IMG/VR virus record: IMGVR_UViG_2663762839_000011 | Location: 1 to 5,048 of that record | Reading direction: 5' to 3' (one strand) | From: a virus | Taxonomy: Duplodnaviria > Heunggongvirae > Uroviricota > Caudoviricetes | DNA: 5,048 nt | Shown here: positions 1 to 5,048 of the stretch, in pieces | Position numbering within the stretch: position 1 is the first letter of the stretch | How the letters are laid out: each line of letters begins with the position of its first letter | The notes under the pieces: generated by a model | The model's input: only the letters and a program-made list of their open reading frames with translations | What the model was told of the DNA's origin: nothing | Databases searched by the model: none | Position numbers and translations under genes: made by a program

Positions 1-140
1 CATTGGGAAAAGTTGAGCTATATCTAAATTTACAAAATTGGATGTTATAGAAATCGAGGTTTCAACTAGGCATGGAACTGCAAAATTTTTAATGCCTGCA
101 CGCGAAAGTCGTTGGCGGGTCCTTTCCGGTGATCCAGATC

Positions 141-164
141 GTTACGGGGCGGCGACCTCGCGCG
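141..164. other. cos site core (cosN) of a lambdoid phage; 12-nt cohesive-end sequence GGGCGGCGACCT at 147-158
   Basis: Sequence ...ccggtgatccagatcgttacg|GGGCGGCGACCT|cgcgcgttttcactatttatga... matches from memory the junction of the lambda right end (...tttccggtgatccgacaggttacg) with the lambda left end (GGGCGGCGACCTcgcgggttttcgctatttatgaaaatttt). A Nu1-like gene begins about 215 nt downstream, as in lambda. Confidence 0.8.
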
Positions 165-374
165 TTTTCACTATTTATGAGATTTTTTGAGGGGGTGGTT
201 GTTGTTTAATTGTTTGGTATATCTAATTGATAAGTAAGGTGAAAATAAAATAAATACAACAACCTTACGATGTGTTTTGATGTCGTCAATGCGAAAAATG
301 TCAATGATATCAAATGGTTTTGCAAAAACACATGGTTGTTGTTTCGCTTTTTATCGATGACTTATGGAGAGGAG
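165..374 (+). promoter_or_regulatory. cosB-like region / AT-rich leader between cosN and the nu1-like start; presumed terminase small-subunit and IHF binding region
   Basis: Positional equivalence to lambda cosB (between cosN and the Nu1 ATG). The first ~35 nt after cosN resemble lambda, then the sequence diverges and is AT-rich. It contains the direct repeat TGGTTGTTGTTT at 196-207 and 333-344 and a partial IHF-like core (tATCAAatggTTt, about 308-320). The binding function is inferred, not demonstrated. Confidence 0.4.
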
Positions 375-836
375 ATGGCCTTTTTATTGAATAAAAGTGA
401 TATGGCCTCCTCCATCGGTATCTCTGTTCAGGCATTTGATAAATGGGGCGTTCCTCCTGTTGAACGTCGGGGGAGGGAAGTTTTATATGACGTTAAAACT
501 GTACTGGAGATAGATCGCGAGCGGCGACAACACAATCAGAGAACACCTGATGACGGGGGAGAACTGGAGGAAAGGCTGCTTCGGGCCAGAGCTGAACTGA
601 CAGAAGAACAGGCTGTAGCTCAAAAACTTAAAAATCAGGTAACCGAAGGTAAGCTCATCGATTCAGACTTCTGCGTTTTCGCCCTCAGCAAACTGGCGAT
701 GGCATTGTCCAGTACGCTTGATTCCATTCCGTTATCCATGCAGCGACAGTTCCCGGATTTAACGCCACGTCATATTGACCATCTGAAAACCCTTATTGCA
801 AAGGGCGCAAATCAGTGTGCGCGGGCAGGGGATACG
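375..836 (+). pseudogene. nu1: Nu1-like terminase small subunit (DNA packaging protein), 5' fragment lacking the C-terminal ~18 codons and its own stop codon; reads in frame into the lom upstream region
   Basis: The translation from ATG 375 (MAFLLNKSDMASSIGISVQAFDKWGVPPVERRGREVLYDV...LTEEQAVAQKLKN...DFCVFALSKLAMALSSTLDSIPLSMQRQFPDLTPRHIDHLKTLIAKGANQCA) aligns along its length with lambda Nu1 as I recall it (MEVNKKQLADIFGASIRTIQNWQEQGMPV...EVLYDS...LTRAQADAQELKN...AFCTFVLSRIAGEIASILDGLPLSVQRRFPELENRHVDFLKRDIIKAMNKAA), including the N-terminal helix-turn-helix segment. A GGAGAGGAG ribosome-binding site lies at 366-374. Homology is lost after about nt 825 and there is no stop before the lom stop at 1482-1484. 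The start is uncertain: in-frame ATGs also occur at 270, 357 and 402. Confidence 0.65.
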
Positions 837-863
837 GGCGCCAGAAATGGCGCCTTTTTTATT
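837..863 (+). terminator. Rho-independent terminator hairpin (GGCGCCA-GAAA-TGGCGCC followed by TTTTTTATT)
   Basis: Perfect 7-bp GC-rich stem at 837-843 and 848-854, GAAA tetraloop at 844-847, and a run of six T at 855-860. It lies 22 nt upstream of the lom start codon and inside the nu1-lom reading frame. Confidence 0.65.
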
Positions 864-884
864 GCAGAAAAGCGAGAGGTAATT

Positions 885-1484
885 ATGCGTAAATTATGTG
901 CTGTTATTTTGTCCGCAGTAGTCTGGCAGGTCGCCGCTGCTACGCCAGCGAGTGCAGCAGAACATCAGTCCACGCTGAGCGCGGGGTATCTCCATGCCTC
1001 GACGAACGTTCCCGGTAGTGATGATCTGAACGGGATTAACGTGAAATACCGTTATGAGTTTACGGACGCGCTGGGGCTGATTACGTCCTTCAGTTATGCC
1101 AATGCTGAGGATGAGCAAAAAACGCGCTACAGCGATACCCGCTGGCATGAAGATTCCGTGCGTAACCGCTGGTTCAGCGTGATGGCGGGGCCGTCTGTAC
1201 GCGTGAATGAATGGTTCAGCGCGTATTCGATGGCGGGTGTGGCTTACAGCCGTGTGTCGACTTTCTCCGGGGATTATCTCCGCGTAACTGACAACAAGGG
1301 GAAAACGCACGATGTGCTGACCGGAAGTGATGACGGTCGCCACAGCAACACGTCTCTGGCGTGGGGGGCTGGCGTGCAGTTTAACCCGACCGAATCCGTG
1401 ACCATTGACCTTGCTTATGAAGGTTCCGGTAGTGGCGACTGGCGAACGGATGCATTTATTGTTGGTATCGGATACCGTTTCTGA
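885..1484 (+). CDS. lom: Lom outer-membrane protein (Ail/Lom/PagC/Rck/OmpX family 8-strand beta-barrel), 199 aa
   Basis: The translation MRKLCAVILSAVVWQVAAATPASAAEHQSTLSAGYLHASTNVPGSDDLNGINVKYRYEFTD...WRTDAFIVGIGYRF has a Sec signal peptide with an ASA|AE-type cleavage site, alternating-hydrophobic beta-strand patterning, and a C-terminal aromatic residue (YRF) typical of outer-membrane beta-barrels. It closely resembles lambda Lom from memory. Ribosome-binding site GAGAGG at 874-879, 5 nt before the ATG. Stop TGA at 1482-1484. Confidence 0.9.
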   Translation: MRKLCAVILSAVVWQVAAATPASAAEHQSTLSAGYLHASTNVPGSDDLNGINVKYRYEFTDALGLITSFSYANAEDEQKTRYSDTRWHEDSVRNRWFSVMAGPSVRVNEWFSAYSMAGVAYSRVSTFSGDYLRVTDNKGKTHDVLTGSDDGRHSNTSLAWGAGVQFNPTESVTIDLAYEGSGSGDWRTDAFIVGIGYRF

Positions 1485-1589
1485 CAACAGACGCCGATTT
1501 ATCTTCTGTAAATATTGTTATGATACGCAGGTTCATCCACCTTATGGGGTGAACTGCGTTTGAGGAAACGTAAAGTTACACTGTCCTGA

Positions 1590-1622
1590 AGCCCGTGGCG
1601 TCACTGCTGCGGGCTTTTTTTA
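1590..1622 (+). terminator. Probable intrinsic terminator downstream of lom (about 10-bp stem with two G-U pairs, followed by a T7 run)
   Basis: AGCCCGTGGC (1590-1599) pairs with GCTGCGGGCT (1606-1615) around a 6-nt loop, followed by TTTTTTT at 1615-1621. It sits between the lom stop and the stf ribosome-binding site. Confidence 0.5.
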
Positions 1623-1635
1623 TTGGTGGAAAAGT

Positions 1636-4470
1636 ATGACAGTAAAAATTTCTGGCGTGCTTAAAGATGGCACAGGAAAACCAGTACAGAACTGCACCAT
1701 TGTGCTGAAGGCCAGACGAACCAGCAGCACGGTGGTGGTGAACACGGTGGCCTCTGAAAATCCGGATGAAGCCGGACGTTACAGCATGGATGTTGAGCAT
1801 GGCCAGTACAGCGTCACCCTGCTGGTTGAAGGTTTTCCGCCTTCACATGCCGGGATCATTACCGTCTATGAAGGTTCCAGACCCGGTACGCTGAATGATT
1901 TTCTCGGTGCCATGACGGAGGATGATGTCCGACCGGAGGCACTGCGCCGCTTTGAGCAGATGGTGGAAGAGGTGTCACGTAACGCCTCCGCGGTTGCACA
2001 GAACACGGCAGCCGCGAAGAAGTCAGCCAGCGATGCCAGCATATCTGCCAGTGAGGCGGCAACCCATGCGACTGATGCTGCAGGCTCAGCACGTGCAGCC
2101 AGCACATCAGCCGGGCAGGCCGCGACGTCGGCTCAGTCAGCGTCTTCCAGCGCAGGAACGGCATCAACAAAGGCTACTGAAGCATCAAAAAGTGCTGCCG
2201 CTGCAGAGTCCTCAAAAAGCGCGGTGGCTACCAGTGCCGGTGCGGCGAAAACGTCAGAAACGAATGCGGCTGCGTCACAACAATCAGCAGCCACTTCTGC
2301 ATCCACCGCGACCACGAAAGCGTCAGAAGCAGCCACTTCAGCACGGGATGCGGCGGCCTCAAAAGAGGCAGCGAAGACATCCGAAACGAACGCGAAAGCC
2401 TCGGAAACCAGCGCAGAATCCTCAAAAACGGCTGCCGCATCGTCCGCCAGTTCGGCGGCGTCATCGGCATCATCTGCGTCTGCTTCAAAAGATGAGGCGA
2501 CCAGACAGGCGTCAGCAGCAAAGGGCAGCGCCACGACGGCATCCACGAAGGCGACAGAGGCAGCTGGCAGTGCGACGGCGGCAGCTCAGAGCAAAAGTAC
2601 GGCGGAATCCGCGGCAACGCGCGCCGAGACAGCGGCAAAACGGGCAGAGGATATTGCATCCGCCGTGGCGCTTGAGGATGCGAGCACGACGAAAAAGGGG
2701 ATAGTACAGCTCAGCAGTGCAACCAACAGCACATCTGAAACGCTTGCCGCGACACCGAAGGCAGTTAAAGCAGCGAATGACAATGCGAATGGCAGGGTAC
2801 CATCTAACCGAAAAGTTAACGGGAAAGCACTGACTGCGGATATAACATTAACACCGAAAGATATTGGCACTTTAAATTCAGTAACGATCTCTTTCTCTGG
2901 CGGGGCAGGGTGGTTCAAACTGGCAACGGTTACCATGCCACAAGCGAGTTCCATCGTTTACATCGCATTGATTGGTGGCGCTGGATTTAACGTGGGGGCA
3001 CCTCAACAGGCAGGTATATCTGAACTGGCTCTACGAGCAGGCAATGGAAACCCCAAAGGGATTACCGGAGCTTTGTGGAAGCGTACAGCCGTCGGATTAA
3101 CGAATTTCGCCTGGATCAACACATCCGGCGATATATATGATATTTACGTTGAGATTGGCAATTATGCGACGAGTGTAAATATCCATTGGGATTGTACTAC
3201 AAATGCGTCAGTTTCTATTTATACCTCGCTAACATATTCAGCGAGTAAGCCTTCCAGCGTTACCGATGGTGTTGTTTATACGATGTATAGCTCACATCAG
3301 AAACCTACACCATCAGATATTGGAGCGCTGCCAACAACTGGAGGGACTATTTCAGGTCCGTTGTCTGTTACTGATGGGATCACCGGGGCACTGAAGGGGA
3401 ACGCCGATACCGCGACGAAACTTGCGGCAGACCCAAAAATTAACGGTGTTAAGTTTGATGGCTCGGCGGATATTAACCTCACGCCGGAAAATATTGGTGC
3501 ATTTGCCCGACGTTCGACGGGGGCTTATGCGGATTCGGATGGAGCCGTTCCCTGGAATGCCGAATCAGGCGCTTACAATGTCACCCGCTCTGGCGACAGC
3601 TATATTCTGGTTAACTTCTATACCGGAGTCGGAAGTTGCCGGACCCTGCAGATGAAGGCGCATTACAGAAATGGTGGTCTGTTCTACCGTTCTTCAAGAG
3701 ACGGTTATGGTTTTGAGGAAGACTGGGCAGAAGTTTATACCTCGAAAAATCTTCCACCAGAAAGCTACCCAGTCGGTGCACCAATCCCGTGGCCATCAGA
3801 TACCGTTCCGTCTGGTTATGCCCTGATGCAGGGGCAGACTTTTGACAAATCTGCTTACCCGAAACTTGCAGTGGCTTATCCGTCAGGCGTTATTCCTGAT
3901 ATGCGTGGCTGGACGATTAAGGGCAAGCCCGCCAGTGATCGAGCCGTATTGTCTCAGGAACAGGACGGCATTAAATCGCACACCCACAGCGCCAGCGCAT
4001 CCAGTACGGATTTGGGGACGAAAACCACATCGTCGTTTGATTACGGCACTAAATCCACGAATAACACCGGGGCGCATACGCACAGTCTGAGTGGCTCTAC
4101 GGGGTCTGCCGGTGATCATACTCATGGTAATGGTATTCGTTGGCCAGGAGGCGGCGGTTCTGCGTTAGCATTTTATGATGGCGGTGGGTTCACTTATGTC
4201 CAGGATTCACAGTATCAAGTAAGACCGGAGACTTCTTCCTATAGATCGTATTATCAACGTATTCAGACACAGTCAGCAGGTGCTCATACCCACTCGCTGT
4301 CTGGTACTGCAGCAAGTTCTGGCGCACATGCACATACTGTAGGTATTGGTGCGCATACGCACTCCGTTGCGATTGGTTCACATGGACACACCATCACCGT
4401 TAACGCTGCGGGTAACGCGGAAAACACCGTCAAAAACATCGCATTTAACTATATTGTGAGGCTTGCATAA
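1636..4470 (+). CDS. stf: Side tail fibre protein Stf, full length (944 aa), mosaic
   Basis: Ribosome-binding site GGTGGA at 1625-1630, ATG at 1636. The N-terminus ([62 protein letters not shown]...) closely matches lambda Stf (orf-401) from memory, followed by an Ala/Ser/Thr-rich region. The C-terminus (...[54 protein letters not shown]...[49 protein letters not shown]) matches the lambda Stf / T4 gp37-like His-x-His tip. Uninterrupted 2835-nt ORF; stop TAA at 4468-4470. Confidence 0.9.
1990..2660 (+). repeat. Low-complexity Ala/Ser/Thr/Lys/Glu-rich segment of stf with imperfect periodic repeats (AAKTSETNA at 2242-2268 and 2368-2394, 42 codons apart)
   Basis: Protein segment ...[161 protein letters not shown]... 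The GC-rich repetitive GCN/TCN/ACN codons produce long spurious ORFs in other frames on both strands. Confidence 0.6.
3970..4400 (+). repeat. His-x-His repeat region of the stf C-terminal tip (predicted metal-coordinating fibre tip as in T4 gp37)
   Basis: Recurrent HxH motifs: [72 protein letters not shown]. The unit GAHTHSLSG occurs twice. Confidence 0.55.
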
Positions 4471-5048
4471 TGGCATTCAGAATGAGTGAACAAGCACGGA
4501 CCATAAAAATTTATAATCTGCTGGCCGGAACTAATGAATTTATTGGTGAAGGTGACGCATATATTCCGCCTCATACAGGTCTGCCAGCAAACAGTACCGA
4601 TATTGCACCACCAGATATTCCTGCTGGCTTTGTGGCTGTTTTCAACAGTGATGAGGCATCGTGGCATCTCGTTGAAGACCATCGGGGTAAAACGGTTTAT
4701 GACGTAGCGTCAGGGGACGAGTTATTTATTTCTGAACTCGGTCCGTTACCGGAAAATGTTACCTGGTTATCGCCGGAAGGGGAGTTTCAGAAGTGGAACG
4801 GCACAGCCTGGGTGAAGGATACGGAAGCAGAAAAACTGTTCCGGATCCGGGAGGCGGAAGAAACAAAAAACAGCCTGATGCAGGTAGCCAGCGAGCATAT
4901 TGCGCCGCTTCAGGATGCTGCAGATCTGGAAATTGCAACAGAGGAAGAAATCTCGTTGCTGGAAGCATGGAAAAAGTATCGGGTATTGCTGAACCGTGTT
5001 GATACGTCAACTGCACAGGATATTGAATGGCCAGTAGCACCTATAGGG
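4470..5048 (+). CDS. tfa: Tail fibre assembly protein Tfa (homologue of lambda Tfa / T4 gp38-type chaperone); 3' end beyond the window (193 codons present, no stop)
   Basis: ATG at 4470-4472 overlaps the stf stop (TAATG); ribosome-binding site TGAGG at 4457-4461. The translation [193 protein letters not shown] is near-identical to lambda Tfa as I recall it. It is absent from the supplied ORF track only because it lacks an in-window stop codon. Confidence 0.9.

Follow-up and report, generated by a model that had tools for sequence, protein, structure and literature searches.

The analysed window, the whole 5,048-nucleotide (nt) stretch recorded as IMGVR_UViG_2663762839_000011 in IMG/VR, carries stf, the gene of a lambda-type side tail fibre. 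Judged from its sequence, this fibre is very probably built of interchangeable modules, in which two central domains (A and B) belong to the shaft and receptor specificity resides in the tip. The gene occupies nt 1636-4470 on the plus strand as one uninterrupted open reading frame (ORF) of 944 amino acids (aa), and the first-pass annotation of this DNA was right to call it intact. It was identified from the ORF list and the families PF08400, PF03406, PF07484 and PF03335. Pfam placed PF08400 at aa 1-134, Phage_fiber_2 at 350-389, Collar at 714-761 and Phage_fiber repeats near 809-822, and no Pfam domain was placed between aa 390 and 713. The centre matched no NCBIfam family either. The protein ends in a collar and needle of the gp37 type (PDB 2XGF, PF07484) and is followed directly by tfa (PF02413), as is characteristic of lambda-type Stf. 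Lambda-like ends (the anchor on one side, the gp37-type collar and needle and then tfa on the other) flank two modules, probably of the shaft, that take the place of the lambda middle.

For the comparison with lambda, the Ur-lambda Stf was reconstructed from NC_001416 (lambda 18000-23500) by joining orf-401 to the orf-314 frame at the known frameshift. The reconstructed protein has 774 aa, which bears out the earlier statement that the protein studied here is 170 aa longer. Stf aa 1-387 are 75.6% identical to lambda (tblastn), and blastn matched nt 1611-2768 (79%), 3775-4119 (79%) and 4333-5032 (93.6%). Neither tblastn nor blastn found a lambda match between nt 2769 and 3774. In a global alignment, identity ends past AATPKAVK (aa 378, nt 2769) and returns at GAPIPWPSD (aa 713). 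The limits proposed for the lambda-like flanks (nt 2769 and 3769) were accordingly right within a few bases, with flank E-values of essentially zero, and the central region between them (nt 2770-3768, plus strand) does differ from lambda Stf in both DNA and protein. It had also been claimed that the protein is lambda-like from GAPIPWPSD to the end. The resumption is real, but nt 4120-4290 (aa ~830-877) fail to align with lambda DNA, and the lambda-like C-terminal part is 68.5% identical overall.

The two proteins share the N-terminal anchor, an Ala/Ser-rich shaft, the Phage_fiber_2 repeat, the collar and needle, and the downstream tfa. The anchor (aa 1-134; nt 1636-2037, plus strand) matches PF08400 over the full profile (E = 1.2e-69), and aa 1-94 match the Stf chain of the Ur-lambda tail-tip structure 9E7M, solved by cryo-electron microscopy (E = 2.4e-46). 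The Ala/Ser/Thr-rich shaft (aa 135-349; nt 2038-2682, plus strand) is lambda-like with insertions and deletions when aligned to Ur-lambda Stf. It is followed by the Phage_fiber_2 repeat (nt 2683-2802, plus strand; PF03406 over aa 350-389). The proteins differ in the middle, which is ~134 aa long in Ur-lambda, whereas here 334 aa are made up of domain A, a linker and domain B. They also differ in the tip subdomain, which cannot be aligned, and in the second SFDYGTKTTG copy and IGAHQHPVV, both removed here by insertions and deletions. When the two centres were compared by BLASTP, no residual similarity was detected (best E = 3.4). We consider it hardly credible that the centre arose by divergence in situ from a lambda-like ancestor; gradual divergence is ruled out because the centre lacks lambda similarity (E > 3) and differs in length by ~190 aa.

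Relatives were compared segment by segment by blastn, using lambda, phi458, Cyrano, Turner, 204576 and the StfR of the K-12 Rac prophage. Phage phi458 matches window positions 2368-3479 (86%) and Cyrano (108 kb) matches 2368-3425 (87%). Turner matches 2368-2786 (96%), 3394-4100 (91%) and 4273-5034 (96%), and StfR matches 2368-2786 (94%), 3445-4100 (92%) and 4273-5034 (96%). Phage 204576 matches 2368-2786 (95%) and 3449-5032 (96%). Adjoining stf segments have different nearest relatives, and the gene is a mosaic in this sense. Relative to the nearest lambdoid fibres (204576, Turner and StfR), a single cassette of ~660 nt differs (2787-3448), and it holds domain A. StfR and Turner have an unrelated segment of ~850-900 nt at this position, and phmmer found no domain A in Turner Stf. 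Otherwise, StfR (1120 aa) and Turner Stf resemble the fibre closely: 88-89% in the N-terminal part, 94-96% over nt 2368-2786, 91-92% over domain B, the collar and the proximal needle, and 95.7% over the 3' end and tfa. Besides the segment replacing domain A, they differ in the tip subdomain.

The breakpoints were located in DNA alignments covering nt 2690-2860, 3360-3520 and 3720-3830. On the left, lambda diverges past 2768-2769 and Turner and 204576 past ~2786, while phi458 and Cyrano are near-identical from ~2755. Between domains A and B, the matches to Turner, StfR and 204576 start at 3394, 3445 and 3449, respectively, and those to Cyrano and phi458 stop at 3425 and 3479. These positions lie inside three conserved motifs, namely the Phage_fiber_2 repeat ending in ATPKAVK, a repeat linker with the pattern GNAxTATKL...NGVxFDGSxDI (nt 3385-3501, plus strand; aa 584-622), and the collar start GAPIPWPSD. 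The repeat linker shows ~77% identity to P1 Sv'. Mosaic tail fibre genes are textbook knowledge, and module exchange at conserved linkers is the classical pattern in the fibre genes of P2, Mu, P1, lambda and the T-even phages.

The first-pass annotation had explained the centre as a single module of about 1 kb, acquired in one recombination event from another phage, that would form the shaft and the receptor-binding part and hence change host range. The whole of nt 2770-3768 does lack lambda similarity, and among 5,426 complete E. coli genomes the centre is present as one block (at least 80% coverage) in 396, with parts of it in 2,908. Nevertheless, we regard a single module as very unlikely, since the sub-parts have different nearest relatives, with breakpoints at 2786, 3394, 3425, 3445-3449 and 3479. 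In addition, domain B and the collar are common to StfR and Turner, so that they are not foreign relative to those fibres, and the centre does not include the tip that binds the receptor in the homologous gp37 needle. Acquisition by recombination is supported in that the gene is a mosaic and its centre foreign relative to lambda, but it concerns several modules instead of one.

An AT-rich patch within an otherwise GC-rich gene had been taken as a further sign of acquisition. The patch is real: guanine-plus-cytosine (GC) content is lowest in stf over nt 3101-3300 (0.405), and GC content at third codon positions (GC3) is 0.28-0.32 over 3136-3375. GC3 amounts to 0.54 in the N-terminal part (0.51 in the shaft), 0.43 in the centre and 0.45 in the lambda-like C-terminal part. 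The centre is below the N-terminal part (Fisher test, p = 0.005), which would suit a single foreign module, but it equals the C-terminal part (p = 0.67). The N-terminal GC excess comes from the second positions of Ala/Ser/Thr codons (GC content at second codon positions, GC2, of 0.78 in the shaft). Because the excess sits at second positions and the GC3 of the centre matches that of the C-terminal part, composition does not mark the centre as foreign, and we rejected it as a specific marker. The foreign origin of the centre is indicated by comparative evidence, not by composition.

Domain A (aa ~406-575, ~170 aa; nt 2851-3360, plus strand) belongs to no Pfam or NCBIfam family, and neither its single sequence nor a 32-sequence profile found a sequence match in the PDB. 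When aa 388-610 were searched against 1.84 billion representative proteins, 683 clusters were obtained at E <= 1e-3, 91 of them at E <= 1e-30. The domain is common to phi458 and Cyrano and occurs in siphovirus, myovirus and T5-like fibres. Classified by their N-termini, the hosts are lambda-Stf, P2-H (P0162) and T-even gp37 (P0211, P0217) fibres, and the domain was also found in T5-pb1-like proteins that end in an S74 chaperone (P0170). The accompanying C-termini are either a gp37-type needle or an S74 chaperone. In 9 of 14 representatives with a gp37-type collar, domain A stands directly against the collar. P0192 and P0222 contain the lambda-type middle segment and domain A side by side in one fibre, which argues that domain A is an additive bead rather than an allele of the lambda centre. 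P0121 and P0170 contain two copies. In P0121, the copies are near-identical and each lies inside a repeated block of ~340 aa, which suggests that whole fibre cassettes were recently duplicated internally in this protein.

The motifs GGxGFNxG, RxGNxxPKG and YD[IV]Y are kept in domain A down to 30% identity. AlphaFold2, run on the 32-sequence alignment, predicts an all-beta sandwich for model residues ~30-190 (Stf aa ~407-567), with a predicted local distance difference test (pLDDT) score of 88-98. A fold search among predicted viral structures returned long tail fibres of the gp37 type and exopolysaccharide depolymerases. Pantoea stewartii WceF (PDB 6TGF), a tailspike-like depolymerase, was matched at 12% identity. 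WceF has an eight-stranded jelly-roll at residues 531-667 (PMC7949094). The fold search reports no target coordinates, and this jelly-roll is presumably the part that matches domain A. Unlike Stf, WceF also contains a beta-helix, and it is an enzyme.

This fold raises the alternative that domain A serves, in the manner of a lectin, as an accessory receptor-binding domain that binds surface glycans (O-antigen, capsule or lipopolysaccharide (LPS) core) reversibly along the shaft, giving two sites per fibre. A jelly-roll beta-sandwich and motifs conserved to such low identity would fit a lectin, and there are lambdoid Stf proteins that bind LPS sugars, such as that of Gifsy-1 (PMC12312913). The conserved residues, on the other hand, resemble core or interface motifs and not a variable ligand site. 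We know of no binding function for the WceF jelly-roll, the presumed match. Tandem copies of domain A, and its presence in fibres with their own distal receptor-binding domains, are as expected of a structural bead. On balance, we consider a lectin role in this fibre rather unlikely. The broader proposal, that domain A is a conserved lectin-like glycan-binding bead serving as a second, shaft-located attachment site in many tail fibres, seems unlikely to us; if it were true, swapping domain A would change the host range whatever the tip. This widespread and uncharacterised domain, the only mildly new element of the gene, merits a family definition and a solved structure.

Domain B (aa 619-714; nt 3490-3777, plus strand) is common to the S/S' fibres of phage Mu, to StfR and to Turner. 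It aligns to residues 321-415 of PDB 8JU3 (E = 1.7e-23 for the chain and 3.6e-23 for the aligned stretch), which is Mu gp52 (PMC11821841). The shared part includes the motif YRNGG[LI]FYRS[SA]RDGYGFE, whereas gp52 has an anchor at its N-terminus and a receptor-binding domain at its distal end that are unlike those of Stf. At the DNA level, nt 3526-3768 are 97.5% identical to K-12 stfR. We infer that domains A and B are most likely trimeric shaft beads that set the length and geometry of the fibre.

The C-terminal part (aa 709-944; nt 3760-4467, plus strand) comprises a gp37-type collar and a needle with HxH repeats. Apart from a stretch in its middle, it aligns to the tip of T4 gp37 (PDB 2XGF) with E = 2.9e-84, and over the last 40 residues the two proteins are nearly the same. 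In T4 gp37, the stem spans residues 882-931 and 960-1009, and the tip subdomain, residues 932-959, carries the contacts to LPS and OmpC (PMC6957217). Residues 932-959 correspond to the stretch of Stf that cannot be aligned (aa ~830-877; nt 4123-4266, plus strand). This subdomain is ~48 aa long compared with 28 aa in gp37 and is unrelated to it in sequence, as is the rest of gp37 outside the collar and needle. The receptor-binding and host-range role that had been assigned to the centre is not supported, because by homology with T4 gp37 the receptor contacts map to the tip. The tip subdomain, a second variable patch and the probable site of receptor contact, is thus most likely the host-range determinant rather than the centre. 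Specificity would reside in this subdomain, folded with the help of Tfa. Since the tip is unlike that of lambda, the same receptor (OmpC, bound by Ur-lambda Stf, which forms a trimer on the tail tip) should not be assumed.

The variable patch (window 4120-4290) has no DNA match to lambda, nor to Turner or StfR over 4100-4273. It matches phage 204576 at 96% identity and is also present in the O104:H4 prophage described below. With a GC3 of 0.30, it is the lowest-GC3 part of stf. The 3' end of stf (last ~45 codons) together with tfa (nt 4333-5032) is closer to lambda, at the 93.6% given above, than the other lambda-like parts (~79%). It appears that the C-terminus of the fibre moves jointly with its chaperone as one module.

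Such a fibre gene was probably assembled by homologous or short-homology recombination at the conserved linkers, between co-resident prophages and infecting phages. In the latest exchange that is visible against 204576, Turner and Rac StfR, domain A alone would have been replaced. Two points weigh against the modular scheme outlined here. The AlphaFold2 model is a monomer, and its domain B and linkers are of low confidence (pLDDT <60) because the alignment covered domain A alone. Furthermore, none of the relatives that were fetched can be the actual donor of nt 3385-3500, since all of them differ there by many substitutions.

A search for the 26-bp crossover site of Din-family invertases, which act on invertible fibre segments such as Mu G, P1 C and e14 P, found none within stf (degenerate pattern, up to 3 mismatches). 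The single match in the window lies outside the gene at 44-69 and is compatible with chance, as 33 of 200 shuffled sequences gave at least one match. A Pin-type DNA invertase is encoded just downstream of tfa in phi458 (locus 6216-7699) and Turner (locus 6248-6838), and phi458 also carries IS1 downstream of tfa. Turner and Rac both have an invertase at the position after tfa; the O104:H4 copy lacks it and has a methyltransferase gene and tfa fragments.

The window is identical to the complete 5,048-bp draft contig CDRI01000475.1 (GCA_000946855.1), and both of its ends are contig ends. This, together with the left 834 nt, where a terminase gene meets lom in a way that no complete E. coli genome searched shows, could suggest that the stf mosaic arose from the faulty assembly of a short contig. 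We see next to no chance of this. The segment carrying lom, stf and tfa (831-5032) was found collinear and 99.5% identical in DNA in 52 of the 5,426 complete genomes, including O104:H4 outbreak strains, and an assembly artefact as the source of the mosaic is thereby refuted.

The closest copy considered, WP_000216502.1 of O104:H4 strain 2011C-3493, has 944 aa, the same module order and lom-stf-tfa as neighbours. It differs at 5 aa, 2 of which lie in the variable tip patch. In O104:H4, stf belongs to a complete tail-gene cluster and comes after J and lom, whereas here a truncated small-terminase gene lies upstream of lom. The protein is annotated as 'prophage tail fiber N-terminal domain-containing protein'. 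An exact-sequence look-up of our 944-aa protein returned only its own contig. A protein search with the centre gave 1,631 homologues at E <= 1e-5, and those listed are mostly named tail fibre or phage tail proteins of E. coli or Shigella. In the phage collection searched, no isolated phage gave a single match that covers at least 80% of the window.

Public genomes already contain an almost identical gene with a tail fibre annotation, and it represents an ordinary tail-fibre mosaic. Its importance as a discovery is small, as mosaic fibres are well known and the allele is annotated in RefSeq genomes that include the O104:H4 outbreak strain. Its value lies in the natural breakpoints (...ATPKAVK / domain A / GNAxTATKL...FDGS / domain B / GAPIPWPSD), which mark sites where nature tolerates fibre chimeras. 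These positions are useful for engineering lambda-based delivery particles like those in PMC11338833. The insertion points MDETNR and GAGENS, attributed to the lambda-Stf chimeras of Eligo, were not found in the main text of that paper and did not enter the evidence.

Four features were recognized on the contig, namely a Nu1-like small-terminase fragment, lom, the intact stf and the 5' part of tfa. The lom gene (nt 885-1484, plus strand), for an outer membrane protein of the Ail/Lom type, matches PF06316 with E = 2.6e-123 and is the customary gene upstream of stf. The order lom-stf-tfa is present, but J is missing from this contig, and the truncated small-terminase gene stands next to lom instead. 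The gene tfa (nt 4470-5048, plus strand; PF02413, E = 2.5e-43), which encodes the tail fibre assembly chaperone, is cut by the contig end. It ends 1-2 codons early, and the final 16 nt of the window are unlike all relatives.

Window positions 1-834 match the small-terminase region found in other prophages at 99.5% identity. Within window 375-884, the small-terminase gene breaks off 16 codons short of its stop, and a 4-nt microhomology, GATA (831-834), links it to the lom side. In O104:H4, the DNA to the right of this junction begins 14 nt past the J stop codon. The junction itself occurs in none of the complete E. coli genomes searched. If it is real rather than an error of the draft assembly, all head and tail genes were deleted and the prophage is defective, so that the intact stf does not imply a functional fibre in this strain. 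The junction produces a predicted in-frame Nu1'-Lom chimeric ORF (270-1484). Directly after it, GGCGCC at 837-842 can pair with GGCGCC at 849-854, followed by six T (window 837-860). This hairpin resembles the intrinsic terminator found after J in related prophages; here it would sit within the chimeric ORF.

Within the Ala/Ser-rich part of stf (1859-2704), long ORFs are found in other frames and on the opposite strand, for example 1922-2704 (plus strand) and 2133-2546 (minus strand). The biased codon composition of this part probably accounts for them. In lambda, the annotated orf206b occupies the equivalent place.

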